A stretch of DNA of 64,000 nucleotides from Dictyostelium discoideum (taxonomy: Eukaryota), in the NCBI GenBank assembly GCA_000004695.1, contig CM000151.3, positions 2,496,001 to 2,560,000 of the forward strand, read 5' to 3'. This document shows positions 5,511 to 27,214 of the stretch, piece after piece. Below the pieces are notes generated by a model. The model saw nothing but the letters and a program-made list of their open reading frames with translations, did not search any database and was not told where the DNA came from. Position numbers and translations under genes: made by a program. Numbering within the stretch: position 1 is the stretch's first letter; every line of letters begins with the position of its first letter.

Positions 5511-6081
5511 ATAATAATTACCTCTTTAATTTTGTCAAAGAATAAATTATATAAAAAATTATTTAAATAATTTTTTTTTTTTTTTAATAACAATTTTATT
5601 GTTTTTTTAAGTATATTTTTTTTTTTTTTTTTTTTTTTATATAATTATAAGTTATAAGTTATAACTTTGTCTTTTTTGAATGAAATAAAAAAAAAAAAAA
5701 ATTACTTTTTATACTAAAAATAAAATAGAATTTTTCTATTAAAAGACTACACCGATTTGGAGAAACCAAAAAAAGTAAAAAATTTCTGATCTGATTGCAT
5801 AAAAAAAAAAAAAAAAAAAAAATAATTTTAATTTTTTTTTCCCGATTAGACAAGTCCCCTAAAAAAAATCACTTTTAATTATTTCCAAAATAAAAATTAA
5901 TTTAAAAAATAGTGATAAAAATTATATTTTATTTTATTTTTATTTTTTTTTTTAATTTATTTTAATCTGATTGTATGAAAAAAAAAAAGTTATAAAATAA
6001 AAGAGAAATTAAAAAATAATTTCACCCTAAAAACAGCATGCTGAAAATAATATGGTAATTTTGTGACAAATATTTGATGAT

Positions 6082-6952: not shown

Positions 6953-9253
<2,301 letters not shown>

Positions 9254-9333: not shown

Positions 9334-10025
9334 AATTTGTTGTTTGGTTTTATATTTTTACTTAAAGTATAAATTTAAAATATATTATATATTAAATATT
9401 TAATTTAATTTTTATTATTAATATTTTCTTTTTTTTTTATATTTAATATGATATATTTATATATAAATTTATTTTTATTATTAATGTAAACTATATAATA
9501 TATATATTAACATTGGTTTAGAGGTAATCCATCTTCAATTGAGATTGATTATGGAAAAAGGTTAATTTACAAAATAAAATTGAACAATTTGATGATTTAA
9601 AAAGGTAATTTGTGTATCACGAATAAACTATTTGGGAGGGCTAAGCTAGGAAAGAAGTAATTTAAGGCAAAATGAATTTTATTGCTTGTAGTTATTATTT
9701 TTATTTTTTTTTTATTTAATATCGATATATTAAGATTTATTTGTTATGTTGGAGCGTCAGCACATTAAACTCAAAATAATAACTTTATAAAGAATATACA
9801 AAATAAACTAATTTACAAATGAAAAATGTAAATGAATAAATATAATAAATGAAAATGAATTTAATAATATAAATAATTATTGTAACAAAGAACTACTGCA
9901 TACCTTACAAATTGTAATGAATCTCGTATTCTAACTTTATGGAATACTTATATTATTTTGGATATATCAATAAACGATGTGTGACCCTTGAATAATTAAT
10001 AATAATTTATATAATCTATAGATAT

Positions 10026-10160
10026 CACATCTTAATGAAACGTGGTTATTCCAGGTTAATGAGTGGATAGCAATTGAACGAGCATCAATAGGGGTATCAA
10101 AGAAATGATTAACAACAGTGATACGATCAGTTACACCAGTAATAGCAGCACCATGACCTT
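10026..10160 (-). pseudogene. Discoidin I pseudogene fragment (~135 bp internal piece of the H-type lectin-domain coding region)
   Basis: ~90% identical at nucleotide level to 14292-14428 and 15777-15913 of the two intact discoidin I genes. Homology stops abruptly on both sides. Confidence 0.75.
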
Positions 10161-10335: not shown

Positions 10336-10872
10336 AGTTGACCCAACCACATTGATTACTATTCATTCAGTGTAAAGTGGATGCAAGGACATGCACAACT
10401 AATACTAACATACAGTAGTATCACACAATATAAAGTTTAACCAGATTCTTTAGATTAGCTACTCAAAAATGAGCACATATAATGTGTATGATTTTTATTA
10501 TTATTATTTATTTGATATTAATTAATTATTTACTTGATCTAGATGTAGATATTTTAGTAATAATAGGTGTTAATTCGGATTTTTTTTAAATTTGTATTTC
10601 TGCATGCAATATTATGTGTGAGTTTCAAAAAAAAAAAAAAAAATAAAAAAAAAAAAAAAATAAATAAAATTTTAAAAACCTTAATAATATAATGTTAATA
10701 TATAAAAAAATGAAATTATAGATCAAATAAATAAATGTTATTCGTAAATAGTAAAAACTCAAATAAATTCCTACCAATTTAATGTGGTTGACCTCATTCT
10801 TTTTTTAATTTTATTTAACCTTATTAGGTAAATTTCAGGGAAATCTAGATATTTAAATGGATAAAAAGAATG

Positions 10873-10951
10873 TGAGAGATGCGGGGTTCGAACCCGCGAC
10901 CCCGGAGGATAGAGCCTAAATCTATTGTCTTAACCACTCGACCAATCTCCC
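10873..10951 (-). tRNA. tRNA-Leu (anticodon UAG), long variable arm
   Basis: Reverse complement folds: acceptor GGGAGAT/ATCTCTC (one G-U), D-arm GTC-GAGTGGTTAA-GAC, anticodon arm ATAGA-TTTAGGC-TCTAT (TAG), 11-nt variable arm, T-arm GCGGG-TTCGAAC-CCCGC, discriminator A. T5 terminator just downstream on its own strand. Confidence 0.75.
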
Positions 10952-10997
10952 GTGCATATGTTTAAAATTTTTTCACCAAACTCCTGTGCATATGTTT

Positions 10998-11451
10998 AAA
11001 AAAAAAAAACCTGGAACCCAAGTTAATCAGAAAATTTCCAGATTTTTAACTTTTTAAAGAAAAATAAAAAAAATAGAAAGAAAATAAAATGAAAATCACA
11101 AACAACACCACAAATATTAAGCAACACAAATGCCTACAAAAAATAAGCGAAATTGTGGATAAAACTCAATTAAAAAAAAAACAATTCAAATACGTCATAA
11201 ACATCAATCACGAACCAGACGATAAAATAAAAAAAGATTTAGAAAAAAGTTTGGACAAAAAAGATGTTTTAATCAAAAGTAATAATACAATTCAAAATTC
11301 GAAACAAAAAAAAAAAAAAAAAAAAAAAGTAAACCAACCCCTCTTTTAGAGACCCTGTAAAAAAAAAAAAAAATAAAATAAAATGAGATCTAGCATCTCA
11401 AGGAGAAGCAAATAATAATTGCGTTATCCAATTCAAAAAAAAAAAAAAAAA
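10998..11451 (+). mobile_element. Severely 5'-truncated TRE5-A-like element (C-module region plus oligo(A) tails) inserted ~47 bp upstream of tRNA-Leu, 5' end facing the tRNA, flanked by a TSD CTGTGCATATGTTTAAAA
   Basis: TSD copies at 10982-10997 and 11456-11473, with a third copy of the same motif at 10952-10968. 11320-11450 is the reverse complement of 20168-20278. 11200-11290 matches the reverse complement of 1345-1430. ORF-track entry 11089-11349 lies inside this non-coding module. Confidence 0.65.
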
Positions 11452-12589
11452 AAACTGTGCATATGTTTAAAATTTATCATGTAATGTTTATAATTTATCA
11501 TGTGATGCTTATAATTTTTTTGCTTTTAAAATCAATTATTCAAAATATTTTCTATGACCTTGTATTATATTTGGTGTTAATGCTGAATTATCTAGTGATT
11601 GGTATAAATCAAGAATTTCATTCTTTAATAATAATGTGTACATATAATCACCAACTCCAAACTCTATAAACAGAAGAACAATACTACATGTACATGTTCA
11701 GGTATAAACACATTAGCCGTCTCAACTGATCCACCATGGCCTCAAATAACTTCGGTTTACATTTTTGATTCACTGTTTACTTTATTAAGTCATGAATTTC
11801 TTTATTTTTTACTTTTTTTTTCTAAAAAATATAGTCATTTATTAAGTTAATTTGAGCAGTATAGTGATAAATTGAAAAATAAACTCTGTAGTTTTTCTTA
11901 AGTGTCCAAAACATACATAAAATAGTTTTTATTGAAGTGGTTATTTAGGTGCTTCACTTGATGAAGGTAATCAAACTGCATAGAATGATTTGATGGTTAA
12001 ATGTTCAGATATGGCTTGTCGTGAAGCACTTAAAGAAGTTTCAAGAATGAAAATAATCATAATATTAAAAATTATAATATAAAATAAATTTCTCGTGTGT
12101 CGAGTATTTTCTTATGTTAATTTTATTTGCACAAAATTAATAAATAAAATAAAAGTAGTGTATATGAAAATAAGAAAAAAAAAAGTTTTAGAGCAAAAAA
12201 AGAAAAAGAAAAAAACAAATAATTCCAAAATTAGAGTACTTTTTAAAAATTATTTAATTATTTATTTATTTATTTATTTATTAATTAATTTATTTTTTAA
12301 TTTATTGATTTATTGATTTATTAATTTATTATGATTATTTACATTTTTGTAACTTTAATAGCTTAACGTCATGTCATTTCTAAATATTTAATCTTTTCTA
12401 ATTCTTTGCAGCTTGTTTACCTTTACCAGGTGAAGCTCCGAAATTACTAACAGAAGCATCGTAAAAAAAGCCACAGCTTTACCAATCCATTCTTTACTAA
12501 GTAATTGAGGGAATACACCAAAAAAAGAATGATTGACTTATACCACTATAAAGTAATGGTCACCAGTAATCGAATTGGTCTATCTTTAA

Positions 12590-12720
12590 ATATAAAACTT
12601 ACACTCTTTTTTTATTTGAACTATTGTCTGTATCTTTAGTTTTTCTTTTACCTGTTGTTGTTGTTGTTGTTGTATCATCTTGTTCCTATCTCCTGATGAT
12701 GGTTCATATTAATACTTAGT
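12590..12720 (-). pseudogene. Pseudo-copy of part of exon 1 of the BCNT-like gene (matches 57020-57130), embedded in a block of gene-fragment debris (11700-12900)
   Basis: TACACTCTTTTTTTATTTGAAC.ATT.TCTG.ATCTTTAGTTTTTCTTTTAC.TGTTGTTG...TCTCCTGATGATGGTTCATA shared between 12590-12720 and 57020-57130 with a few substitutions and indels. Confidence 0.55.
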
Positions 12721-13804
12721 TTGATTCTCTGCTATTTGTCCTTTACCATTAACTTTTGCTGGTTTACCCAATGTTGCAAATCCCAATATCGATAATGATC
12801 ACCTAAAAATAAAACTTCATTTGCTAAACCTGCTATATCAATTATTGCCGCTGTACCTAAATTACCAACAATGATACCCCTAAAAATATTAAAAACCAAA
12901 CTCCATTTGCTAAACCTGCTTTATAGATTAACTCAAAAAATTTATTTATTTTTTTATTTGTTTATTTATTTATTTATTTTTTTATTAACCAAAAAAAAAA
13001 GTAAAAAAAAAAAAGAAAAAAAAAAAAAAAGAAAAAAATAAATAAAAAAATGAAATTAAAAATTAGTAAGGGATGTAAAAATTTCAGTGGTGAAAAGTAA
13101 TTTTATGAGGTGCTGGTGTATGTTCGTTGCCTTTTTTTTTATTTTTTTTTACTTTTATTTTTTTATTTCATATAAAAATTAGTTTTGAAAAAAAAAAAGA
13201 AAAAAATAAATTAAAAAAATAATTATTTTATTTCTGTGTGATTATTTTTTTTTTTTTCTTTGTAGAGGGTACAATTTCAAAAATAAATATATTGTTTTTC
13301 TGAGTCCATAAATTTCCTATTACACTAATATTTTTATTTTTTTTTTATCATTATTGTTTTATTTTTTTTATTTTAAGAGTGACCCATTATATTGATTCCT
13401 TTTGAAAACATTTTAATTTATTTATTTATTTGAATTTAAAAAAAAAATTTAAAATATATAGATATTTGGTTAAGAGAATTAAAAAAAAAAAAATTGAAAA
13501 AATTAAAAAAAGTGTTTGGGAATTAAAAAAAAAAATAAAATGGAAAATGAAAAAAAATGAAAAAACGAAAATTAATTTTAATTATTTATTGCTGTAAATA
13601 AAAAATTTATGGAAAAAATAAATATTATAATTCACCTTAAAAAAAAAAAAAAAAAAATTTATGACATTAGTTTTTATGGGTGTATCATGTTTTTTTTTTT
13701 TATTTTTTTTGAATACTGTTAGAATAATTATATAATCTGGTCTATTGATCAAAAAATAAAATAAAAAAAGATAATTATTTTTGATTAATATAAATATGTT
13801 TAAC

Positions 13805-13861
<57 letters not shown>

Positions 13862-13979
13862 AAAGCTTTTTGTTTTATAATAAAAAAAAATAAAATTAAA
13901 TTTTATTTGTTTTTATTTTTTTTTAAAATTGATTAATAATTAAATTACAATTTTAATAATTTTTTAAAAAATTATTTGT

Positions 13980-14741
13980 TTATTCTAAAGCGGTGGCAAT
14001 GTAATCAGCTCTTAATGAATAGACTTTGTTTTCATTCCAAGTGTAGAAAACACAATCAAAACCTTTGGTGGTAATGTTTCTTGGTTGAACACCAATACGA
14101 GTTTGATTGGTAGCATCAGTACAATCGATTTGATCAAAGTTGAGGGCAACCTTTGGGAGAGTAGCAAATTCAAATTGGAATTTAACTGGGACAACAACTT
14201 CACGTTTACCTGAACCGGTATTTAAGGCACAGTTATCGCCAGTGTAAATATCTGCACCAACTTGAGTGACTGAGCTTTGTACTGGTTGAGTGTAGAATTC
14301 ACATCTTAATGAAATGTGGTTATTCCAGGTTAATGGGTGGATAGCAATTGAACGAGCTCTAATTGGAGTATCAAAGAAATGATTAACAACAGTGTTACGA
14401 TCAGTTACACCAGTAATAGCAGCACCATTACGATATTCAGACCAGGTAACATTATCTAATGAATAACGGATTTTGTATGATGTAACCCATTGATCATGAT
14501 CACCACGACCTTGGAGAGCAACACACATAAAAGTACGTGGAACTTCACAACCAGCAACAATGTATTGGTTAGTATCTACGATTGATGAACACCAAGCTTC
14601 TGAACCATCAATAGTATTGGTACCTTTGTTTTTATAGTTTAAAGCAGCATTAAATTGAGTGTGGACACCATTGTAATTGGTTGAGGTTCTTAAATGACAT
14701 TGAGCATTTCCGAGAAGTGTAACTAAACCTTGGGTAGACAT
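13980..14741 (-). CDS. Discoidin I (253 aa; N-terminal discoidin/F5-8 type C domain plus C-terminal H-type lectin domain), intact, intronless
   Basis: Protein [29 protein letters not shown]...[10 protein letters not shown] recognised as discoidin I from memory. Complete ATG..TAA. Confidence 0.9.
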
Positions 14742-15081
14742 TTTAATTGTGTGTTGAATTTAAAAAAAGATAATTTGTATAAATGAAATTTTAATTTTTC
14801 AGTTTAATGATTTTAAAATGAAAATCATATTTTCTTTTTATAGTTTTTTTTTTTTTTTTTTTCCAATTAAAATTAAAGATTTAATTTATTTTTTTTTTAA
14901 TTTTTTAATTTTGTAAAATGACCAACTATTTTTATTGAAAAAATTAATGGGTATAAATTTTTTAAAATTTAATAAAAATCACCCCACTTTTCAGATTTTT
15001 CCTAGCTGTCGCAATTGGTGTGAAAAAAAAAATAAAATTAAAATGATTGTAAATTTTTTTTGTAATGGTTTGATTATTAAA

Positions 15082-15119
<38 letters not shown>

Positions 15120-15464
15120 TAAATTTGTAAATTTGGAATTTTTATGATTGAAAATAATTATATCTTTTTTTTTTTTATGATTTTTTTTTTTTTATTGATT
15201 TTTTTTATTTTTTTTTTATTGTTTTTTCAATGAAAAAAAAAGTTTTTATTCCTTAAAGATTGACGATAATTAATTTAGATTGGATATTATAAAAATACAG
15301 TTTTTTTTTTTTTTTTTTTATCATTTTTTATTTCAAATTTAATAATAATAGTTTAGAAATGGAAAAAATATAATAAACAAAATCTTGAATTTGGATTTTT
15401 TTTTTTTTTTTTTATTAAATTTGATTAAAAATTAAATTACAATTTTAATAATAAGATTAAAAAT

Positions 15465-16226
15465 TTATTCTAAAGCAGTAGCAATGTAATCAGCTCTTAA
15501 TGAATAGACTTTGTTAGCATTCCAAGTGTAGAAAACACAATCGAAACCTTTGGTGGTAATGTTTCTTGGTTGAACACCAATACGAGTTTGATTGGTAGCA
15601 TCAGTACAATCGATTTGATCAAAGTTGAGGGCAACCTTTGGGAGAGTAGCAAATTCAAATTGGAATTTAACTGGGACAACAACTTCACGTTTACCTGAAC
15701 CGGTATTTAAGGCACAGTTATCGCCAGTGTAAATATCTGCACCAACTTGAGTGACTGAGCTTTGTACTGGTTGAGTGTAGAATTCACATCTTAATGAAAT
15801 GTGGTTATTCCAGGTTAATGGGTGGATAGCAATTGAACGAGCTCTAATTGGAGTATCAAAGAAATGATTAACAACAGTGTTACGATCAGTTACACCAGTA
15901 ATAGCAGCACCATTACGATATTCAGACCAGGTAACATTATCTAATGAATAACGGATTTTGTATGATGTAACCCATTGATCATGATCACCACGACCTTGGA
16001 GAGCAACACACATAAAAGTACGTGGAACTTCACAACCAGCAACAATGTATTGGTTGGTATCTACGATTGATGAACACCAAGCTTCTGAACCATCAATAGT
16101 ATTGGTACCTTTGTTTTTATAGTTTAAAACAGCATTAAATTGAGTGTGGACATCATTGTAATTGGTTGAGGTTCTTAAATGACATTGAGCATTTGAGATA
16201 AGTTGAACTAAACCTTGGGTAGACAT
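15465..16226 (-). CDS. Discoidin I, second tandem copy (253 aa, 7 amino-acid differences from the first copy), intact
   Basis: Near-identical ORF 1485 bp upstream of the first. The 5' and 3' flanks are also conserved, so the duplication unit is ~1.5 kb. Confidence 0.9.
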
Positions 16227-16459
16227 TTTATAAATTTTATTATTTAAAAAGATAATTTGTATGAAATTTTAATTTTTCAATTTAATGATTTTAATTAAAA
16301 ATTTTTTTTCTTTTTATACTTTTTCTTTTTTTAATTGGTTTTTTTTTTTTTTTTTTTTATTTTTTAAATTTAATTATTTTTAATTTTTTTTGTAAATTGA
16401 CAAAAAAGTAATCATTGTTTAAATTTATTTTTGCAAAGATTTGATTTTTTAAAAACTAA

Positions 16460-16491
<32 letters not shown>

Positions 16492-16589
16492 TATTGGGGG
16501 CAAGTGAAATTTCCCAATTTTAAAATAATCTCAAACTTTTAAAAGAAAACAAAAAAAAAAAAAAAATCTTTTTACTTTTTGGGGTTTAA

Positions 16590-16622
<33 letters not shown>

Positions 16623-16857
16623 AATCAATTTTTTTTTTTTTGTTTGGATTTTATTTTTATAATTTAATAATTATTTAATAAAATATTTTCTTTTTTATAA
16701 TTTAATTTTTATGTTTAGTCTTTTAATTTATATATTTCTTTTTTTATTTATCTTTTTAAAAGCTATAATTATTATTGAGGAATCTAACTAAAGAAAATTA
16801 TATTTTTTTAATTTTATATTAAAAAATTAAAAATATTTTAATACAGTTGATTAAAAT

Positions 16858-16896
<39 letters not shown>

Positions 16897-17136
16897 TGAT
16901 TAATTAGTTTATCTAAAATATCAATTTTTTTTTAATATTTTTGAATTTTAAAATTTAAATTTATTATTCTTTTTTCAATTTAAATAATCAAATTAAAAAT
17001 TTTAATTGTAAAATATTGTATTAATATTATTGGTTTTTTTTTTTTTTTTTTTTGATCAATGTTATTAAACCATGTTCATGAATAATAAAAATTAATTTCA
17101 ATAAATTCTTAAAACCGTTTGGATAATTATAAGTTC

Positions 17137-17190
17137 TCGCTAGTTCGATTCTGAATAAATGAAATAGGAATCGAACTAGCGACATATTCT
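17137..17190. promoter_or_regulatory. Perfect 15-bp inverted repeat (TCGCTAGTTCGATTC / GAATCGAACTAGCGA, 16-bp spacer). Each arm contains an external B-box-like AGTTCGATTC, located 20-70 bp downstream of tRNAi-Met copy A
   Basis: Only the tRNA-proximal arm is shared with copy B (20709-20725). The distal arm is an extra inverted copy. Confidence 0.5.
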
Positions 17191-17580
17191 ATATAATTTT
17201 AAAATTTAGCTTCTCTAGGTTTCGATCCTAGGACCTCGAGGTTATGGGCCTCGCACTCTACCCCTGAGTTAAGAAGCTGTCGATTCAAGCTAACGAATCT
17301 TATGATTTTGTTGTAATAAAGTTACTCTATAAAATTAATACATATTAAATATGCATATTACATTACTAATTTTAGTTGACACACATTTAAATAATATAAT
17401 AATAATAATAATAATAATACTGTCAACTCATTATAAATAATATAAATACTAAAGAATAATTTTATAAACAATATTGAATATTAAATATAAACTAATATTA
17501 AATAAAGATAACAAAGTATTATTCAATTATATAATTATTAATTATATATATTTATAAAGCTAACAAGCTTTATTACATTT
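17163..17580 (-). repeat. Arm A of an inverted segmental duplication (~420 bp): tRNAi-Met gene plus 302 bp upstream flank and ~45 bp downstream flank
   Basis: Reverse complement of 20315-20730 with only a few mismatches. Confidence 0.85.
17207..17278 (-). tRNA. Initiator tRNA-Met (anticodon CAU), copy A
   Basis: Identical to copy B, see 20614-20685. Confidence 0.85.
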
Positions 17581-17831
17581 GTGTAATGAACGTCGTATTC
17601 CAATTTCTATTAAATAACAGCAGCCTGGGAAAAACAAAAAACAACATATACAAACTAATCAGACAAGAAAAAAAAGCAACCAACAACGAACAAACAAAAA
17701 AATTCAAAAACATCATCTCCCTACAACTCGAAAGATTTAGCAAACACTGGAACTCACCACTACACACAGTAGCACTACCATCAAACCTCAACAAATATAT
17801 TACGTCACTAAACACACTCTACACCCCCCAA

Positions 17832-17884
<53 letters not shown>

Positions 17885-17992
17885 ATACAACCTTAAAAGG
17901 CACCTGTAATATCTAATAATAAAATTAATAAAATGAGTTATATCTCAAGAAGAAGCAACTAAAAATTGCGTTATTCCATTCAAAAAAAAAAA
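17581..17992 (+). mobile_element. 5'-truncated TRE5-type element (a divergent subfamily relative to the 19855 copy): ORF2 C-terminal fragment, oligo(A), C-module-like tail (AAAATGAGTTATATCTCAAGAAGAAGCAACTAAAAATTGCGTTATTCCATTC) and oligo(A). Truncated 5' end abuts the duplicated tRNA flank exactly at its breakpoint
   Basis: ORF 17586-17909 ends LERFSKHWNSPLHT, matching RLEKFSHNWKSKLMT of the 19855 fragment. The tail is ~75% identical to 11385-11440. Confidence 0.6.
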
Positions 17993-18009
17993 TTCCTATT
18001 AAATACTTT

Positions 18010-18600
18010 TAATAATTTGACCCTTGAACACACAGAAATAATTAATAATAAATAATAAAAAAAAAATAATATTATATCTCTTATATAAAAATTATAAGTT
18101 TAGTTTGTGCACAATTTGGAATAAAACAACAATGAATTTTTATTTTATTTACTATTTATACTAAAATAAATTTTACTAAAATTTCTGAGAATAAAGTAAG
18201 AATCTTGTATTTGTTAACGTCTTTTCAGCTACAGATCTATTTCTATATTTGTATTTTACCAGGGATAAAAACTTAAATATAAATTTATGTCGCTTAATTA
18301 TTCGCGATTATTACATTTTTCATCATTTGAATATATAATAATTTCCATTATTCAAGATTCACAAAAAAAGAAAAAAATTAATAAAAGTAAAAAACATTTT
18401 GAAACTTGTATAAAATACATAATATACGTGAACACACAGAAATAATAATAATAATAATTTATATATATAATATATTTATCTCTTTTACTACTAAAAATAA
18501 TGTTTATCTTTATTTTATTTAAACTATTTATACTAAAATTAATTTTATAAAGAAACGAATTTTTTAAATTTAGATCACCAAAATACCTTTTTTTTTTTTT
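18010..18600 (+). repeat. Two degenerate ~180-bp direct repeats (18010-18200 and 18420-18600) sharing GAACACACAGAAATAAT..., ...ATCTCTT..., ...ACTATTTATACTAAAAT.AATTTTA
   Basis: Visible as collinear blocks ~410 bp apart. Origin unknown; could be a solo-LTR-like or satellite remnant. Confidence 0.35.
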
Positions 18601-19283
18601 TTTAAAAAAAATCATAATTTTCTATTGCAATAACTCTTTTTTTTTTTTTTATATATTTTCAAAATTTTTTTTTTTTATTAATTATTATTTAAAAATAAAT
18701 ATAATATAAATTTTAAATATTATTTTAATATAAATATAATATATTTTATTAAATATTTACACATATTAATTTTTTTTTTTTTTATTTTTTTTTTTTATTT
18801 TTAGAAGTTTTAAAGATTTAATTAAATGTAAAGTATGTACTATAATGTGTTCACAATCAATATTTTATAATTGAGATCTTGGAGTTTGTATTTTTTGTAT
18901 TAAAGTAATGATAAAGGAAGAAGATGAACAATTAATTAAAAAAGAAGTTAAATCTATTTCAATTGAAGATGATCTTTATGATGAAGATAGTTATTGTTTG
19001 GATTGTGGGCAATTTAAAACACACTACTCCAGACATTGTAGTAGTATTCATCAACAAGTTAATGTTAATAAAGTTATAATGGATCACTGTAAACGTTATC
19101 CCAGAGAATCATTTAGAGGTAAAAAATCAAAAAAAAATGGAGATCAATTGAATATTCCATTTAAGTTATGGTTCAAGTCATTATAATTTTGGTAATACTG
19201 ATGACAAAACAAGTATCCAATGCTTCAATTGTATAGAATTTCATCCCATTCAATACCTTTAACTGATGCTGATGCTATAATTA

Positions 19284-19382
<99 letters not shown>

Positions 19383-19455
19383 TTCGTTTTTTCAATATTT
19401 CTTTTTTATTTCATTTTTAAAGGGAACAAAATATAATAGTTTGAGCAAAAAAAAA

Positions 19456-19494
<39 letters not shown>

Positions 19495-19854
19495 GCGCCA
19501 ACCCCAATAGAAGTTTACACCAATCAAAATTTTCAAAAAAAAAAAAATAAATTAAAATAAAATAAAAAGATGGCTTTTTTAAATAAGTGACTTTATTTAT
19601 TTGTTTTTAAGTCTTTTTATATGAAAAATGAAATAATCAAAAAGAAGTTGTTTTTGTTGGTTGTTTTTGTATATCTCTCTTAAGATTGTATATCCAAATG
19701 ATGAAAATGTAATAATCGCCAATGAATAAGCGACATATATTAACATATATAGTTTTCATCCCTGTTTGAGAAAGGATCTGTAACAACAAAAATGCACTAT
19801 TCATTCAGTGAATGTTCAGGATTTATCAAATTTTTTTCTCCAAATTAGAATATC

Positions 19855-20152
19855 TTGGAAAAAAAGACAGCCATTATGGAATCGATATGGTACAGAAGAA
19901 ACCAAATAAAATTCAACGATAACACTACAATAATAACAGAGAACCAAATAATTCATAAAATCAAAAAAGCGAGAGATGCCGAATGGGATAGAACAAGAAA
20001 GATAGTAGAAAAGCAACTACGTCAAGAACTAAGATGCACTGATAACCGAGAGTCAATCAATAGGACCGCATCAATAAAAAGAAGACTCGAAAAATTCAGT
20101 CACAACTGGAAATCGAAACTCATGACCATAAACATCCCGGAACACTTCAGAC
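19855..20152 (+). mobile_element. TRE5-A-like ORF2 3'-terminal fragment. The upstream boundary is uncertain and may extend to ~19700. Interrupted at 20152 by a nested insertion
   Basis: Translation ESIWYRRNQIKFND...AEWDRTRKIVEKQL...RLEKFSHNWKS is TRE5 ORF2-like. The track start is a TTG, not a real start codon. Confidence 0.55.
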
Positions 20153-20280
20153 TTTTTTTTTTTTTTTGAATTGGATAACGCAATTATTTGCTTCTCCTTG
20201 AGATGCTAGATCTCATTTTATTTTATTTTTTTTTTACAGGGTCCCTAAAAGAGGGGTTGGTTTACCTTTTTTTTTTTTTA
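20153..20280 (-). mobile_element. Nested, minus-oriented insertion of a minimal TRE5-A 3' end (oligo(A), ~105-bp C-module, oligo(A)) flanked by a 13-bp TSD GAACACTTCAGAC
   Basis: TSD copies at 20140-20152 and 20281-20293. Inserted segment is the reverse complement of 11318-11451. Confidence 0.65.
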
Positions 20281-20613
20281 GAACACTTCAGACAACATTT
20301 AGTTATTTGATATGAAATGTAATAAAGCTTGTTAGCTTTATAAATATATAATTAATAATTATATAATTGAATAATACTTTGTTATCTTTATTTAATATTA
20401 GTTTATATTTATAATATTCAATATTGTTTATAAAATTATTCTTTAGTATTTATATTATTTATAATGAGTTGACAGTATTATTATTATTATTATTATATTA
20501 TTTAAATGTGTGTCAACTATAATTAGTAATGTAATATGCATATTTAATATCTATTAATTTTATAGAGTAACTTTATTACAGAAAAATCATAAGATTCGTT
20601 AGCTTGAATCGAC

Positions 20614-20685
20614 AGCTTCTTAACTCAGGGGTAGAGTGCGAGGCCCATAACCTCGAGGTCCTAGGATCGAAACCTAGAGAAGCTA
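20614..20685 (+). tRNA. Initiator tRNA-Met (anticodon CAU), copy B
   Basis: AGCTTCTTAACTCAGGGGTAGAGTGCGAGGCCCATAACCTCGAGGTCCTAGGATCGAAACCTAGAGAAGCTA. Perfect 7-bp acceptor stem. Anticodon loop CCCATAA has C33. T-loop GATCGAAAC has A54 and A60. These are eukaryotic initiator-specific features. Similar to human tRNAi-Met (GGCCCATAACC, AGGTC, GGATCGAAACC blocks). Confidence 0.85.
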
Positions 20686-20714
20686 AATTTTAAAATTATA
20701 CAGAATATGTCGCT

Positions 20715-20725
20715 AGTTCGATTCC
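20715..20725 (+). promoter_or_regulatory. External B-box (AGTTCGATTCC) 30-40 bp downstream of tRNAi-Met copy B
   Basis: Matches the B-box consensus GGTTCGANTCC at the position established for Dictyostelium ex-B boxes. Confidence 0.55.
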
Positions 20726-21023
20726 TATTTTAAAGAATTAAATTCCATATTGATTTAATTTTAAAAAAATTAAAAGCCTACAGTTGATCAAACGGATACT
20801 AGATACAGAAAAACATATCCATCAATCTAACATCAACTACATTCAATCTATCTACTCTACACACTAATTCCTTCAATCCTTGGATTGGGAATAAGAATAG
20901 ATCTGAATAAACGATAAAGAAAAAAAAAAATAAAAATAAAAATCAAAAATATTTTTATATAAACACATAATTAAAAAAAAAAAATAATAAAAATAATCTA
21001 AAAAAAAAAAAAAAAAAAAAAAA

Positions 21024-21800
21024 ATGAATTTTTTCGATAAACTTAAAGGTGAACTCAACTTAGGCGAAGAAGAGTTAAATAAAAAAACTATTCAAATAAG
21101 GTTATTCTACCCACATACCTTGGAATTAAATAGTAATTCAACAAAATTAATAGATAATTTCATAGTTAATGGTACTCTTAACATTGTCAGAAGACAAAAA
21201 GGTATAACAGTATTTGGTAGAATACTAAAAGAAAAATTCACATTATTACACGAGTGTTACAGCACTTTCAAGTATGAAGATTTCCCACTGCAAAAATTCA
21301 TACTTTACACCCCAGGATATCACTATGTCCACTTTTACACATTTACAAAAAACATAATAAAAAAAATAAACAATCAAATGGTAAAAGAAAACTGGGGATT
21401 GGAGCCATTACTAATAGATGAATGCAACATAGTAATGCTACCAGATGTGATTAGATATTCATGCATTCTATTATTTAACAAAGAAGATGATATCTCAATC
21501 ATTAAAACAAACATTGATGCTATAAAAGGTAGTAAGCATCCAATAAGAGCCTTCATCTCTGAATATAACAATAAAGAAATAAGAGATGTTAGAAAAAAAA
21601 AAAACACAAGTAATAAAAATCAACAACCAACAACTACAAATACAACTAAACCAATACCATCAACTCCACCAACAACTAATGCATCAACAACCACACCAAT
21701 AACAACCACACCAATAACAACCACACAAACAACAACCACACCAACAACAATCACACATCAATTACCAACAAGCAATACAACAATCAACAACCTAAACAAA

Positions 21801-21835
<35 letters not shown>

Positions 21836-21905
21836 AAAACCTATCAATAAAATTACTACAAGCAATGGTACCAAGTTTCCAATTGCCAGTAGTATTAGAA
21901 AATAA
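21024..21905 (+). CDS. TRE3 ORF1 (293 aa, Thr-rich C-terminus)
   Basis: First ORF of the element. Confidence 0.7.
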
Positions 21906-24640
21906 TGGAACAATTAAAATTATTACTATGGAACTGCAGAGGTAATCAATCAACCAACGCTAAGAATAAAACAGAAGAAACGATAAAAAGAATTGGCACT
22001 CAATTAACACTCCTAACTGAAACTAATTTCAATGGATTCAACCACCACAAAACAATGTTCAACTTTGAAAGAATAGATCATGGTTCAGGTAAAGGAACTG
22101 GCATAGCAATAGAAAATAGAGATACAAGAAAAGGCCACATATCAATAAACTTCAAAGACGATGATGGTAGAATACTATCAATTAAATACAATTCCTTTAA
22201 TTCTATCAACATATTATTGATCAATGCTCCAGCGACTATATCTGAAAGAAACACCTTCATAATCAACTCAAAATCACTGTTTAAAAAATATAATTCAATC
22301 AACCATCAAATAATAGCAGGCGACTTCAATAACAACCACGATTGCAACAGCTTCTTCGGTACTGAATTACGTAAAATAATAGACCAAGACATGCTACTAG
22401 ATACTGGTATTGAAGAAAACACTCCAACATTTCCAAGATCAATGAAGAGACTAGATAGAATCTACTGTCATCCAACACTACTAAACCAAAATTCAAAACT
22501 GGTAGTCCACAACACAGTATTCAACAAATCAGATCACTTTCCCATCACAATCACAATACAAACCAACAGAGAAACAACAACAACAACAACAACAACCAAA
22601 CTAGAAAGACTCCCTTGGACATTATGTAAAGAAATTCTCAACAACAAACATATACATGATGGGTTATCAGAATTAATCAGTAAGAACAAAGATAAGATCA
22701 AATCAGTGGAGGAATGGACGAAATTTAAAAATAATGTCATCAGAGATTATTTAAAAAAAGAACAAAACAAAATAAAGAAAGAAAAGAACAAAAGAAAATA
22801 CGTAATCCACAAATTACTTGGAAATAGTGATATCATTCCAAAGATGAGAAAAGAACTCAATGAAGAAATAAGTAGAATATTAGAAGAAGAAAGAAAGGTA
22901 AAAGCATGGGATATAAAATTAAAACTCCACCTGCATCAAGAAACACCAAGCAAATACCTCACAAGTATCCTTAAATCCAGAGCCAAAGATAAATCAATAT
23001 TCCAAATAAAAGATAAAGATAATAAGACCATATCAGATAAAGAGAACATAGCAAAAAGATTTGTTGAATTCTATCAAGATCAATATGAAGAGAAAGAAGA
23101 TAACGAAGAAACCCACAAGAAGTTATTAGAAAAATGGGAAGTAGACGTTGATTTAATCAAGAAACTCGAGATAGACAGACCGATAAGAATACATGAAGTG
23201 ACCAAAGCAATCAAAACTTCAAGTATCCACAAATCTCCAGGTTTAGACGGTATCAATGCACTATTCTACAAGTACCACATCAACTCAATAGCAAGAATAT
23301 TGACTATAGCTTTCAACGACCTCCTCACAAATAAGAAAGAAATCCCCACAAAATTCAAAGAAGGAGTAATAACAACAATATTCAAAAAAGGAGATGAACT
23401 AAACATTTCAAATAGAAGACCAATCACCCTTCTCAATACAGATTACAAAATTTTAAGCAAAATTCTCAACAGTAGATTATTAGATATCACCAGTAAAATT
23501 ATCAACAAATTTCAAAACGGCTTTGTTCCAAACAGGTTCATCCAAGACAATATTCAGATCATGAAGGAAGTAATAGAAATAAGTAACAAAAGAAAGAACA
23601 ATACACTCATTACCTTTTACGATTTTAACAAAGCATTCGATTCAATCAGCCACAAGAGTATCACAAGAACATTAGAGCATATTGGTATCCCCCCAAAATT
23701 CACAGCGATCCTACTAAACCTACTCAAAGATACTAAAAACAAAATAAAGATCAACGACTTTTTAGTCAATGGAATAACAATCAGAACAGGAACAAAACAA
23801 GGAGACCCAATATCACCAACAATCTTTGCTCTAGTTTTAGAACCACTTCTAATAGATATCATCAATGATAATACAATCAAAGGCTTCACTCTACCAAATT
23901 CCAAATCATTAAAACTCACTGCATTTGCTGACGACATAGCAACCTTTACAAACTCCACAGAAGAACTAATGAAAATTAATACTAAAATCCAAAAGTACTG
24001 CTCAGCAACGTCATCATCGTTAAACAAAGAGAAAACAGTAATGATAGCAATAGGAGATAAACCACACGATCTACCATTCCAAGAGAGTACAGTCCCAGAA
24101 AGATATCTTGGCCTCAATTTCACCAAAACAGGTTTAAATTCAAAATACAACACTTTAATCCAAGAAATGAAAAACAATCTAATCAAATGGAAATCACAAG
24201 CAATAACGATGAAGGCAAAGATGACAATTCTCAAAACATACGTTCTATCCAAATTAACATACCATCAATACATGGATAATCTAAATGAAGAACAAATTGA
24301 GGAAATCAATAACATGACCAGATGGTTCTTATTCTCCTCAGTTAAGAATACATATACAGAAGAGAGAAAATACAAAACTATGATGAAAATAGACAGAGCA
24401 TATGCAGATTGGAAAGAAGGAGGCATAAAATTATGGGATATAGAACTAAGACATATAGCATTCAAAATCTGGTACATGAACAGGCTACTCCATAACAACT
24501 ACAACAACAACAACAATACCTTACAAGAATGGTACATGGAGCAATTAAGTAGAAAAAAGCCCACACTTCAACCCTCAACGATATGTGCAGACACTGGGGT
24601 GTATTCAGAGTCAAATTTTACCAAAACCATCCAAAGATAA
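21905..24640 (+). CDS. TRE3 ORF2: apurinic/apyrimidinic-type endonuclease plus reverse transcriptase (911 aa to the first stop)
   Basis: EEP/APE-like N-terminus, RT motifs 1-7 including FADD at the YXDD position. Confidence 0.8.
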   Translation: MEQLKLLLWNCRGNQSTNAKNKTEETIKRIGTQLTLLTETNFNGFNHHKTMFNFERIDHGSGKGTGIAIENRDTRKGHISINFKDDDGRILSIKYNSFNSINILLINAPATISERNTFIINSKSLFKKYNSINHQIIAGDFNNNHDCNSFFGTELRKIIDQDMLLDTGIEENTPTFPRSMKRLDRIYCHPTLLNQNSKLVVHNTVFNKSDHFPITITIQTNRETTTTTTTTKLERLPWTLCKEILNNKHIHDGLSELISKNKDKIKSVEEWTKFKNNVIRDYLKKEQNKIKKEKNKRKYVIHKLLGNSDIIPKMRKELNEEISRILEEERKVKAWDIKLKLHLHQETPSKYLTSILKSRAKDKSIFQIKDKDNKTISDKENIAKRFVEFYQDQYEEKEDNEETHKKLLEKWEVDVDLIKKLEIDRPIRIHEVTKAIKTSSIHKSPGLDGINALFYKYHINSIARILTIAFNDLLTNKKEIPTKFKEGVITTIFKKGDELNISNRRPITLLNTDYKILSKILNSRLLDITSKIINKFQNGFVPNRFIQDNIQIMKEVIEISNKRKNNTLITFYDFNKAFDSISHKSITRTLEHIGIPPKFTAILLNLLKDTKNKIKINDFLVNGITIRTGTKQGDPISPTIFALVLEPLLIDIINDNTIKGFTLPNSKSLKLTAFADDIATFTNSTEELMKINTKIQKYCSATSSSLNKEKTVMIAIGDKPHDLPFQESTVPERYLGLNFTKTGLNSKYNTLIQEMKNNLIKWKSQAITMKAKMTILKTYVLSKLTYHQYMDNLNEEQIEEINNMTRWFLFSSVKNTYTEERKYKTMMKIDRAYADWKEGGIKLWDIELRHIAFKIWYMNRLLHNNYNNNNNTLQEWYMEQLSRKKPTLQPSTICADTGVYSESNFTKTIQR

Positions 24641-25350
24641 ATGAACTTCCAGACTGTATAAGAAACGACAATGATGAACCACTAAAACTGAAAGAAATTT
24701 ACGAACTCATGATCAAAGACAGACACCCAACACCAAGAAGAACAGAATGGCAGAAGTTATGGGCGGTGAGATACAACACAGCAATACCCAAAGTATTCAT
24801 AAACATCAACAGCATTTCTCACCAAAAAGGTAGAAACACCCTCTTCAGATTCTTCTCAAGATCACTTCCAGGTATCAACCACGAAAGAGACACCAGATGC
24901 AAGATCTGTGGCCACCTATTCAGAGACCCTTATTCTCACCTCTTCACTCTATGCCAAGATATCCTAGATATTGAAAAAACCATCATATCAACAGTTAACA
25001 AATTATCATTCATCAAAATCCAAAGATGGTCAATGGATACCTTAGACATATCAAAATACAACAGAACTGAGAGAATCTTCCCCAATCTCATAGGAATAAT
25101 AGCACACCAATTATGGAAGATAATCTGTCACAAATTGTTCAACACTGATGAAAGCAAACCAGAGCCAAAATTCGAGCAAAAGGTCATAGAAACAGAATTA
25201 CTAAATCTCATCGAAACTGAAAAATTCATCACACTAAAGAAAATCAAACACGACGAAGCAATACTAAAAAACACCAATCAAGATCTTCACAAATACAAAT
25301 TCAACAAAGCCTGGCAAACCCCAGCAGCTCCGAACCCTCTTCCAATTTAA
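24583..25350 (+). CDS. TRE3 ORF2 C-terminal Cys/His (zinc-finger-like) domain in a different frame from 21905-24640. Apparent frameshift within 24583-24640, so this copy may be defective or the shift is programmed or a sequencing error
   Basis: CKICGH...H...C motif typical of non-LTR ORF2 tails. Overlaps the end of the RT frame. Confidence 0.5.
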   Translation: MCRHWGVFRVKFYQNHPKINELPDCIRNDNDEPLKLKEIYELMIKDRHPTPRRTEWQKLWAVRYNTAIPKVFININSISHQKGRNTLFRFFSRSLPGINHERDTRCKICGHLFRDPYSHLFTLCQDILDIEKTIISTVNKLSFIKIQRWSMDTLDISKYNRTERIFPNLIGIIAHQLWKIICHKLFNTDESKPEPKFEQKVIETELLNLIETEKFITLKKIKHDEAILKNTNQDLHKYKFNKAWQTPAAPNPLPI

Positions 25351-25355
25351 GTAGT

Positions 25356-25430
<75 letters not shown>

Positions 25431-26302
25431 GTTTAAAAAATTTAATACAATTGAATAATAAAAATAAAACCGTTTAACAAACACCGCCGAAAAGACACAA
25501 GGACATTCCTTGAAGGTCTGATCACAGGTAAAAAAAAAAAAAAAAAAATATTGATTTAATTTTAAAACTGAAAAAAAAAATAACAATAAAAATAATAGTA
25601 TCTTTTTTTCAAAATGAATTTGAGGGATGTATCCTTAGCTCTTATTGTCTCTTCTCTTCTTTTGGATTTATTGATTGCCTAGATTCTTGGTCTTTGAATT
25701 CTATGTCTAATAGAGCTACAGAATTTGAGAAATTCGGTATGTGTAGGATTATAATCCTATAAATTACTGAATATTTGATTTAATAGTTAAAAAGTGATTA
25801 ATCAATATTAAAAAAAAAAAAATTATAATAAATGAAACATTTGAACATGTTACAATTGTTCCACCTTTTTTTCAAACTATTTAACAAAATTTACTTTTTT
25901 AATTTAATAAAATTGGTTTTGTTTATATTAAAAATAATTTTCCATCGATTTTTATTAAAAAAAAAAAAAAAAAAGAAAATCAAATTTTAAAACTAAAAAA
26001 AAAATATTATTTTTTAATTAAAATTTATTTTTAATATTGGTAAAGTCACCAGGGACTTGTTTTAAAATAATTAAAAATTTAGGATAATTTAAATAATAAT
26101 ATTTTAAAATTTTAATTTTAATATATTAATTTTTTTTTTTTAAAATTTTCTCTAGATATTTTTTTTTTTTTTTTTTTTTTTGATATTTTGTGATATTTTT
26201 AGATATTTTAGAATTTTTTTTTTGAAAAAAAAAAAAAAAAAAAAAACTATTTAAATCACACCCAAATTTTAATTATTTTTATTTTTATACATATTTTAAA
26301 AA

Positions 26303-27214
26303 ATGAATAAAATGAATAATATTTTTTTAATAATATCAAGTATTATTTTATCTATTGTTATTTTCGTCAGTGGTGAATGTGCCATTGATTTCTCATCAGA
26401 GATTTCAGTTGGAATTTCAGATTCTCAATGGTCATGTTTAGCTAGTAATAATCAAAGAGTTATAATTCAAGTGTGGTCAGGAGGTGGTCAATATAATTCA
26501 AATATTTCATCTGTTGTATCGGCAGCAGAACAAGCTGGTTTCGATAATATTGATCTTTATGCATTTTTATGTAGTGAATGTGATGGTAATTATCCAGCAT
26601 CAAGTGCAATTCAAAGTTTAGTTTCTAGTTTAAAATCCGATGGTATCAATTTCAATATGTTATGGATTGATGTTGAACAATGTGATGGTTGTTGGGGAGC
26701 AGAGAGTGATAATGCCGATTATGTTCAAGAAGCTGTTGAAACTGCACAAGGTCTTGGTGTTCTAGTAGGTGTATACAGTAGTGAAGGAGAATGGCCACAA
26801 ACTGTTGGTAATTTATCAACTCTAAGTCAATATCCACTTTGGTATGCTCATTATGATGATAATCCATCTTTTTCCGATACCGCTTTTTATGAATTTGGTG
26901 GTTGGACTTCACCAGCAATGAAACAATATATTGGCAATACAAATCAATGTGGTGTTAGTGTTGATTTAGATTTTTATGGATCTGGTAGTGGTTGTTCAAC
27001 ATCCTCTGGTAGTGCATCTGGTAGTGCTTCTGGTAGTGCATCTGGTAGTGCATCTGGTAGTAATAGTGGAAGCAGTAATAGTGGAAGTAGTAATAGTGGA
27101 AGTAGTAATAGTGGAAGTAATAGTGGAAGTAGTAATAGTGGAAGTGGTAATAGTGGAAGTAGTAATAGTGGAAGTGCAAGTGGAAGTGGTACAGGAAGTG
27201 GATCATCCATTTAA
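26303..27214 (+). CDS. Secreted GH25-family (Chalaropsis-type) lysozyme/muramidase-like protein with Ser/Gly-rich C-terminal tail (303 aa)
   Basis: Signal peptide. Collinear blocks with GH25 enzymes: ISDSQWSC / IDVSHWQG, LWIDVEQC / LDIEHN, VGVYSSEGEW / VVIYTTASWW, LWYAHYD / FWVAHWG, VSVDLDFYGS / VSGDVDRNKFNG. Confidence 0.65.
   Translation: MNKMNNIFLIISSIILSIVIFVSGECAIDFSSEISVGISDSQWSCLASNNQRVIIQVWSGGGQYNSNISSVVSAAEQAGFDNIDLYAFLCSECDGNYPASSAIQSLVSSLKSDGINFNMLWIDVEQCDGCWGAESDNADYVQEAVETAQGLGVLVGVYSSEGEWPQTVGNLSTLSQYPLWYAHYDDNPSFSDTAFYEFGGWTSPAMKQYIGNTNQCGVSVDLDFYGSGSGCSTSSGSASGSASGSASGSASGSNSGSSNSGSSNSGSSNSGSNSGSSNSGSGNSGSSNSGSASGSGTGSGSSI

Follow-up and report, generated by a model that had tools for sequence, protein, structure and literature searches.

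How did two identical initiator tRNA genes come to lie in inverted arms of about 420 bp, with retrotransposon pieces packed around both of them? The question is raised by a stretch of 64,000 nucleotides of the Dictyostelium discoideum genome (assembly GCA_000004695.1, contig CM000151.3, positions 2,496,001 to 2,560,000; hereafter the window), between its positions 17100 and 25570. A first-pass annotation had described this locus as an inverted segmental duplication of ~420 bp that became a landing pad for at least four insertions of TRE5 and TRE3, retroelements targeted to genes transcribed by RNA polymerase III (pol III). The landing pad was confirmed, and five TRE-derived pieces are now counted. 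As for the duplication, the pair is indeed inverted, but the duplicated unit is only ~148 bp long, and the remaining 263/266 bp of each arm are a separate element with TG...CA ends. We consider it probable that an old 148-bp duplication, homogenised by gene conversion, was followed by later insertions at the same sites. This history is based on coordinates, target site duplications (TSD), presence or absence in four other assemblies, and the comparison of paralogue with orthologue identities.

The two tRNA-Met(CAT) genes, hereafter copy A and copy B (Table 1), were found by ARAGORN and Rfam at the positions already annotated. Each matches RF00005 over its full length with 57.7 bits, and both tools give a canonical cloverleaf with a CAU anticodon. 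In the Rfam alignment, the acceptor stem reads 5′ AGCUUCU...AGAAGCU A 3′ and the T arm CUAGG-AUCGAAA-CCUAG. Eukaryotic initiator tRNA-Met is recognised by an A1:U72 pair and by A54 and A60 in the T loop (AUCGAAA for TΨCRA). All these hallmarks are present, in agreement with the initiator type proposed earlier. In initiators, the lower part of the anticodon stem also has three G:C pairs in a row (29-31:39-41); here the stem CGAGG/CCUCG contains two of the three (A29:U41, G30:C40, G31:C39). Position 33 is a C, as reported for some non-metazoan initiators. Downstream of the genes, the pol III features are a run of four T at +3 to +6 and, at +23 to +39, the B-box-like GTCGCTAGTTCGATTCC, an ex-B box being expected 20-40 nt away. 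The ex-B box that had been placed within each arm was recovered as CGCTAGTTCGATTC, 26-39 nt downstream of each gene (20711-20724 plus, 17168-17181 minus), and it is kept in D. citrinum, D. cf. discoideum and the divergent strain L008. The tRNA-Met is under selection, since two independent compensatory stem changes separate the three species compared.

The arms (17162-17580 and 20315-20730) are identical at 409 of 421 positions, i.e. 97%, against a threshold of at least 90% set beforehand; they differ by 5 substitutions and 3 short repeat-length indels. Each consists of 302 nt upstream of the tRNA gene, the 72-nt gene itself and 45 nt downstream. The upstream 302 nt can be split further, into 33 nt next to the gene, the 263/266-bp element, and 3 nt (AAA). 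The element starts with TGTAATAAAG and ends with CTTTATTACA, which form a 10-nt terminal inverted repeat, and its two copies are ~99% identical (2 substitutions in 263 nt). The final AAA corresponds to positions -31 to -29, inside the 148-bp unit. According to the earlier claim, the homology of the two copies ends at one and the same nucleotide (17580 and 20315). It does, but this holds for any end of a pairwise alignment, and the point is simply the outer end of the element plus 3 nt of its TSD. Position -302 is therefore an element boundary, neither a duplication breakpoint nor a TRE5 hot spot, and the TRE5 pieces beyond it were displaced by the later insertion. These pieces had been described as fragments of different subfamilies lying in different orientations; in fact both ORF2-bearing fragments are on the plus strand, and the TRE5 pieces do not abut the homology end. 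On the A side, 4 nt and then 35 nt of a second TG...CA element, E2, precede the TRE5 fragment, and on the B side 21 nt do.

The products of two 253-aa ORFs, at 13980-14741 and at 15465-16226, match discoidin I D and C/B of D. discoideum AX4 (chromosome 2) exactly, so that the region can be placed between the discoidin I genes (dscD, dscC) on one side and a GH25 gene (26303-27214) on the other. The corresponding loci were examined in D. citrinum (L003), in D. cf. discoideum (L007) and in a divergent strain labelled D. discoideum (L008). An independent second D. discoideum assembly (L004) and a D. cf. discoideum tRNA-Ser locus that is not syntenic with the window (L001) were also used, while two non-orthologous loci, at tRNA-Phe (L002) and tRNA-Trp (L006), were reached via relatives of TRE3 ORF2 and served as element references only. 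Conclusions are drawn from masked or default BLAST; unmasked searches (word size 7, no dust filter) gave low-complexity noise in DNA of such composition (the window has a G+C content of ~20%). L004 is collinear with 5402-26272 of the window at 99.5% identity, and between 16900 and 25392 the only differences are six substitutions and the length of one A run. As it has the same structure, the locus is not an assembly artefact. As regards strain comparison, which the first-pass annotation had proposed, the structure is the same in L004, and in L008 both the TRE3 and the 263-bp element are missing, the site at copy B being empty.

In D. citrinum, synteny extends to both sides of the locus (tRNA-Leu, one discoidin gene, and GH25 onward), and a single tRNA-Met is present, at the position of copy B, with its own TRE5 46 nt upstream. 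In D. cf. discoideum, two head-to-head tRNA-Met genes lie 2.0 kb apart and are homologous only from -31 to +44 (147 bp, 98.6%). Their spacer contains its own TRE5-A pieces, but no 263-bp element, E2, spacer ORF or TRE3. Over the 148-nt unit, the paralogues agree at 147/148 positions in D. discoideum and 145/148 in D. cf. discoideum, whereas only 105/148 (~71%, ungapped) are shared between the species. Of the 31 upstream nucleotides, 11-12 distinguish the two species, and the paralogues agree there at 31/31 (D. discoideum) and 29/31 (D. cf. discoideum). The simplest reading is a single duplication of ~148 bp before the split of the two species, followed by concerted evolution, presumably by gene conversion, because the unit has the same boundaries in both species and the paralogues are 98-99% identical within a species versus ~71% between them. 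L008 is ~90-92% identical to the window; its two tRNA-Met copies are on one strand, flanking the discoidin genes, and it carries an inversion of a block equivalent to about 12048-17285, with one breakpoint ~7 nt upstream of copy A.

How then did the 263/266-bp element come to be next to both genes? It is absent from the orthologous loci L007, L008 and L003. The empty site in L008 reads ...TTTGAAAACTCATAAG... (AATTTGAAAACTCATAAG), compared to GAAA, element, GAAAAATCATAAG in the window. The arms differ by a dinucleotide at one place only, -33/-32, where copy A has AC and copy B has GA; this place is immediately outside the ancestral unit. On its tRNA side, each element is followed by 4-5 nt that repeat its own distal flank, ACAAA/ACAAA for A and GAAA/GAAA(A) for B. 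Because each flank is repeated in this way, and the AC/GA difference sits precisely there, we favour two separate integrations at the same nucleotide position. Two position-specific integrations would give exactly this flank pattern, whereas a late 420-bp duplication or a homology-primed copying event would not.

The element is most likely a solo long terminal repeat (LTR) of DGLT-A, judging from its size, termini, position and insertion polymorphism. Published DGLT-A LTRs are 265 bp long and lie 13-33 bp upstream of tRNA genes (mean 15); many are solo LTRs, formerly called H3R, and there are ~20 copies among 418 tRNA genes.

TRE5 elements are known to insert with the 5′ end facing the tRNA gene, genomic copies being 37-95 bp upstream of it. 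TRE3 elements insert in the orientation of the tRNA, 40-150 bp downstream, keyed to its B or ex-B box. At present the TRE5 pieces of the locus are 300-340 nt from the tRNA genes, because the later 263/266-bp element pushed them outward. With that element removed, the 5′ end of TRE5-C comes to lie 68 nt from copy A, and the distance between the minimal TRE5-A and copy B becomes ~67 nt. This minimal TRE5-A confirms the nested minimal TRE5 announced near copy B: read on the plus strand it consists of T15, a C-module and T13, between perfect 13-nt repeats GAACACTTCAGAC (20140-20152 and 20281-20293), and its orientation is canonical for copy B. The TRE5-C fragment is bordered by a 14-nt TSD with one mismatch, ATT(T/C)CTATTAAATA (17603-17616 and 17992-18005), and the target sequence of this insertion occurs once in L001. 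Two other tRNA genes of the window serve as controls, and both are canonical: upstream of tRNA-Leu, a TRE5-A with an 18-nt TSD is found at 51 nt, and the distance from tRNA-Glu to the end of a TRE5-A ORF2 fragment upstream of it is 64 nt. The listed TRE pieces are specific to the lineage of this window.

The TRE3 had been described as almost complete and 81 bp downstream of copy B, which proved accurate. It begins 81 nt past the tRNA and ~42 nt past its ex-B box, in the same orientation, and has perfect 20-nt direct repeats. ORF1 (21024-21905, 293 aa) has a stop codon that overlaps the ATG of ORF2 at 21905. ORF2 (21905-25350) encodes the Pfam domains PF03372 (Exo_endo_phos) and PF00078 (RVT_1) and is 98% identical to an intact 1147-aa ORF2, but is broken by a 1-nt deletion near 24562, which is also found in L004. 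The 3′ end is composed of an internal A63 run, a 3′ module of ~108 nt and an A19 tail; the A63 run and the module belong to TRE3, since independent copies in L002 and L006 carry both. By its length of 4781 bp, the element would be a TRE3-C (consensus 4734, versus 5229 for TRE3-A and 5279 for TRE3-B).

Taken together, these data make the following order of events probable. The starting point would have been one initiator tRNA-Met upstream of GH25, the D. citrinum state. Before the D. discoideum/D. cf. discoideum split, a unit of ~148 bp, from -31 to +45 just past the ex-B box, would have been duplicated in inverted orientation ~2 kb upstream, and gene conversion would afterwards have kept the copies nearly identical within each species as the species diverged. 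Then, only in the lineage of this window, both copies would have become targets of elements that seek pol III genes. E2 (~345 bp, TG...CA ends) would have landed 32 nt upstream of copy A, where its proximal end lay before the 266-bp element arrived. TRE5-C at copy A and a 5′-truncated TRE5-A at copy B would have inserted ~67-68 nt upstream, in canonical orientation, after which two independent integrations would have placed the 263/266-bp element at 33 nt upstream of copy A and of copy B. A TRE3 of full-length size would have landed 82 nt downstream of copy B. The two element copies would thereby have extended the inverted homology to ~420 bp and pushed the older TRE5 pieces out to 300-340 nt.

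Could a single inverted segmental duplication of ~420 bp, with TRE5 elements inserting afterwards and independently at the shared -302 boundary, account for the same facts? The high identity over the whole arm speaks for it, as does the similar divergence of its two parts, 2 in 263 nt for the element and 1 in 148 nt for the unit. Yet D. cf. discoideum has the pair with the 147-bp unit and nothing of the element, L008 has an empty site, and each element copy has its own flanking repeat, with the AC/GA difference exactly there. As TRE5 does not target -302, and the pieces do not abut that boundary, we regard a single duplication as highly improbable. A subtler possibility retains the old 148-bp duplication and assumes that the element integrated once and was copied to the other arm by one-ended, homology-initiated repair (strand invasion in the tRNA unit, synthesis across the element, and end-joining). 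The ~99% identity of the element copies, the gene conversion clearly active between the units, the homology ending only 3 nt past the element, the unequal TSDs (5 versus 4 nt) and the rarity of DGLT-A (20 copies) all go in this direction. But synthesis starting from the unit would have carried along the donor dinucleotide at -33/-32, whereas each copy keeps its own, matching its own distal flank. Moreover, the element lies 2 nt outside the homologous unit, where an ordinary two-sided conversion is unable to transfer it. Such copying appears unlikely to us. Another scenario is that copy A replaced a tRNA-Ser gene, that the stretch from E2 to the small spacer ORF is a piece of the tRNA-Ser locus, and that TRE5-C was aimed at that tRNA-Ser. 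Indeed, 17582-17616 shares 94% identity with the sequence 11-45 nt upstream of tRNA-Ser(GCT) in L001, and the TRE5-C insertion point would be 46 nt upstream of this gene, in canonical orientation. However, orthologous L007 has the tRNA-Met pair and neither a tRNA-Ser nor E2, and L001 is not syntenic with the window. L001 homology stops at the TG...CA termini, as for a mobile E2, of which a partial copy is found at 9913-10030. With the later element removed, TRE5-C is at a distance from copy A that falls within the published range. We therefore give the replacement of a tRNA-Ser very little credit.

We thus retain the old 148-bp duplication followed by same-site insertions, for which a number of observations are awkward. 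The TRE5-B fragment is the wrong way round for copy B and has no natural ends, against the TRE5 rule of position and orientation. The distances of 67-68 nt, though within the published range, are off its mode of ~48 nt. E2 and the small ORF are tied to tRNA-Ser in D. cf. discoideum, where the site equivalent to the TRE5-C insertion is 46 nt from that gene. The attribution to DGLT-A is drawn from size, termini, position and insertion polymorphism. The window contains no further copy of the element, and neither do ~150 kb from other Dictyostelium loci (L001-L008). Probes for the DGLT-A primer-binding site and for RNH/IN/GPY-F peptides had no match in the window or these loci, which is expected for solo LTRs and hence uninformative. 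The TSD lengths are unequal, 5/5 for A and 4 nt for B, so that two independent integrations need the loss of 1 nt in the B-side A-run. Finally, with ~20 copies for 418 tRNA genes, two DGLT-A hits on one tRNA pair are a priori rare.

Table 1. Features of the tRNA-Met locus (positions in the window; evidence or remarks in the last column)
Feature	Position	Strand	Evidence
Hairpin at outer edge of arm A: ex-B box and inverted 16-nt copy	17137-17182		16-bp stem, 14-nt loop
Ancestral duplicated unit, copy A (-31 to +45), ex-B box 17168-17181	17162-17309	minus	147/148 identical to unit B
tRNA-iMet copy A, derived position	17207-17278	minus	ARAGORN; Rfam; identical to copy B; D. citrinum has no tRNA-Met there
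266-bp TG...CA element, copy A (candidate DGLT-A solo LTR)	17312-17577	minus	ACAAA on both sides (arm orientation); ends 33 nt before tRNA
E2, second TG...CA element, ~345 bp, interrupted by TRE5-C	17582-18315	plus	TGTAATGAACG...GATTATTACA; collinear with L001 8675-9073
TRE5-C-like 3′ fragment: ORF2 C-terminus, A48, C-module, A11	17617-17992	plus	tblastn to TRE5 ORF2 C-termini
Small ORF DDB_G0273271, orphan with Cys/His motif, centre of spacer	18908-19186	plus	93% identical to AX4 protein
TRE5-A A-module fragment, 5′ end toward copy B	19522-19680	minus	80-91% identical to A-module arrays of L002 and L005
X_B, inverted copy (~85% identical) of E2 distal end and 24 nt beyond	19685-19800	minus	self-BLAST, 18260-18339 versus 19764-19685
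TRE5-B ORF2 C-terminal fragment, truncated at both ends	19869-20150	plus	98% identical to L002 TRE5
Minimal TRE5-A 3′ end: A13, C-module, A15 (severely 5′-truncated)	20153-20280	minus	92.6% identical to C-module at tRNA-Leu
263-bp TG...CA element, copy B (candidate DGLT-A solo LTR)	20318-20580	plus	flanks GAAA and GAAAA; ends 33 nt before tRNA
Ancestral duplicated unit, copy B (-31 to +45), ex-B box 20711-20724	20583-20730	plus	unit comparison; same limits in D. cf. discoideum
tRNA-iMet copy B, ancestral position by GH25	20614-20685	plus	ARAGORN; Rfam; orthologous to D. citrinum L003 9265-9336
TRE3, 4781 bp	20767-25547	plus	TSD (20 nt, perfect) ATATTGATTTAATTTTAAAA at 20747-20766 and 25548-25567

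The TRE5 pieces were assigned to TRE5-C (A side), TRE5-B and TRE5-A from module content and reference copies. In published TRE5 elements, A and C end in a C-module and B has none, and a 3′ B-module is found only in TRE5-A. The fragment on the A side lacks a B-module; identity between its C-module and those of TRE5-A is 80-82%, the published value for the C-modules of the two subfamilies being 78%. The TRE5 of L002 ends with ...CTACTCAT(A)n and no C-module, and homology of the TRE5-B fragment to it stops ~37 nt short of this natural 3′ end. The TRE5-A A-module was absent from the first-pass annotation and comes as an extra piece; the A-module arrays of L002 and L005 end 52 nt upstream of tRNA-Phe. 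The retroelement proteins of the window match Dictyostelium only.

Some further observations on TRE elements were made on the way. Five of the six substitutions between the window and L004, across 8.5 kb, are clustered in 283 bp of TRE3 ORF2 (23728-24010), which points either to a short tract converted by another copy of TRE3 or to polishing that differed locally. The TRE5-A B/C-module fragment (~11002-11454, region 10952-11472) next to tRNA-Leu (10872-10951) has CTGTGCATATGTTTAAAA as TSD. A third copy of GTGCATATGTTTAAAA at 10952, adjoining the tRNA-Leu, may have been left by an insertion or deletion that hit this target earlier. In D. cf. discoideum, 5′ fragments of tRNA genes accompany TRE5 insertions, at 9075-9113 and 9658-9790 of L001, where 17 nt of tRNA-Ser are included in tandem repeats of ~42 bp. 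In L007, a 35-nt 5′ half of tRNA-Met (~5948-5984) lies 90 nt upstream of the tRNA-Met at 5787-5858. Nothing similar to these short duplicated fragments was seen in the D. discoideum window.

E2 is probably mobile: the homology with L001, where it lies 10 nt upstream of tRNA-Ser, stops at defined TG...CA termini, and this suggests transposition. It is absent from L007 and L008. The TRE5-C fragment is inserted 35 nt inside E2, whose final base forms part of the distal ACAAA repeat of the 266-bp element. A partial third copy of the proximal end of E2, 75-88% identical to the L001 copy, is found at 9913-10030 with no adjoining tRNA gene; it runs into a 136-bp repeat (10019-10154, 14293-14428, 15778-15913) that is also located inside both discoidin repeat units. 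The inverted copy of the E2 distal end, X_B, has TGTAATAATC at 19708. In D. citrinum (L003 8718-8797), ~470 bp upstream of the tRNA-Met, there is a perfect 80-bp palindrome, TGTAATAATCGCG...CGCGATTATTACA. As its arms match the E2 distal end (window 18274-18320), sequences ending in TGTAAT are old residents of this intergenic region.

The small ORF in the centre of the spacer, DDB_G0273271, contains a 28-aa motif, C-x2-C-G-x-F-x2-H-Y-x2-H-C...VNKVIM, which is also found in two ORFs of D. cf. discoideum, L001 10001-10427 and L006 7203-7532, both within ~1.5 kb of a tRNA gene (Ser and Trp, respectively). It may be a mobile-element relic rather than a host gene. A gag remnant of DGLT-A was considered and is not claimed, as the motif is CX2CX5HX4C instead of the published CX2CX4HX4C, and the homologues are only small orphan ORFs. 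Directly after the ORF comes a long (TTA)n microsatellite of ~33 units (19285-19383), then runs of A12 and A31, and then a G+C-rich 35-mer (TTGGCGCCAACCCCAATAGAAG...) not assignable to any element.

The hairpin at the outer edge of arm A has a folding energy of -15.5 kcal/mol (z = -6.1), and none was found in copy B or in the other species examined. Fold-back repair or the remnant of a third copy are candidate origins. The hairpin, with an ATTACA/TGTAAT palindrome at the junction, had led us to consider a replication template switch (fold-back) as the origin of a 420-bp copy A; given the old 148-bp unit, this idea was dropped. On the discoidin side of the locus, 13876-14856 and 15369-16332 form a tandem duplication (94% identical) bearing discoidin I D and C/B. 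There is one discoidin copy at the locus in D. citrinum, two in D. cf. discoideum and two in L008.

What can be learned from such a locus? A tentative view, which we put forward as somewhat doubtful, is that the pair is a natural replicate experiment: the same LTR-type element inserted at -33 twice, two different TRE5 at -67/-68, and a conversion tract (-31 to +45) with the same limits in two species. If true, the locus would reveal, to the nucleotide, which DNA the Dictyostelium pol III complex covers, -31 being the likely edge of TFIIIB and +45 the end of the ex-B box. The ex-B box would then belong to what is selected or converted around an initiator tRNA gene, in which A54 and A60 weaken the internal B box. 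More generally, same-site hits and a sharply bounded conversion tract could indicate how far the pol III complex reaches. The comparison also adds a dated order of events at one locus, and carries a caution, as a small old duplication with later same-site insertions around tRNA genes can mimic a larger and more recent duplication. Differences between strains (presence of the TRE3 and the LTR, inverted discoidin block) provide markers for population work in D. discoideum.

With components that are all familiar from a thoroughly studied reference genome, whose repeats have been catalogued, the locus is a neat illustration of established biology and nothing out of the ordinary. That TRE5, TRE3 and DGLT-A target tRNA genes, that ex-B boxes exist and that tRNA genes occur in pairs is already known for D. 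discoideum, a species in which complex repeats at tRNA genes have also been linked to rearrangements. Compared to the TRE5 and TRE3 families (TRE5-A/B/C, TRE3-A to D; Winckler, Gloeckner and colleagues), the elements have the same ORF2 with apurinic endonuclease and reverse transcriptase (APE-RT) domains, poly(A) and TSD of 13-20 nt, TRE5 is upstream with its 5′ end to the tRNA, TRE3 is downstream in tRNA orientation, and TRE5-A has the modular A/B/C structure. The C-module is common to TRE5-A and TRE5-C and not TRE5-B, here as in known TRE5. Nothing is unusual in kind; the differences are the position of TRE5 at 300-340 nt, which is due to displacement, and one TRE5-B fragment that is doubly truncated and inverted relative to the nearest tRNA. 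The 263/266-bp element resembles DGLT-A solo LTRs (H3R) in size (265 bp), TG...CA ends, short TSD, solo state, insertion polymorphism between strains, and a position within the 13-33 window. It differs in that 33 nt is the far edge of this window, and in that both members of a tRNA pair were hit at the same nucleotide.

Many tRNA genes of D. discoideum reportedly form close identical pairs (genome paper of 2005). The tRNA-Met pair is like known pairs in that two identical genes lie a few kb apart, and the paralogues share species-specific changes, including compensatory stem changes. What sets it apart is that the limits of the converted unit (-31 to +45) can here be given to the exact nucleotide in two species, and that the unit includes the ex-B box.

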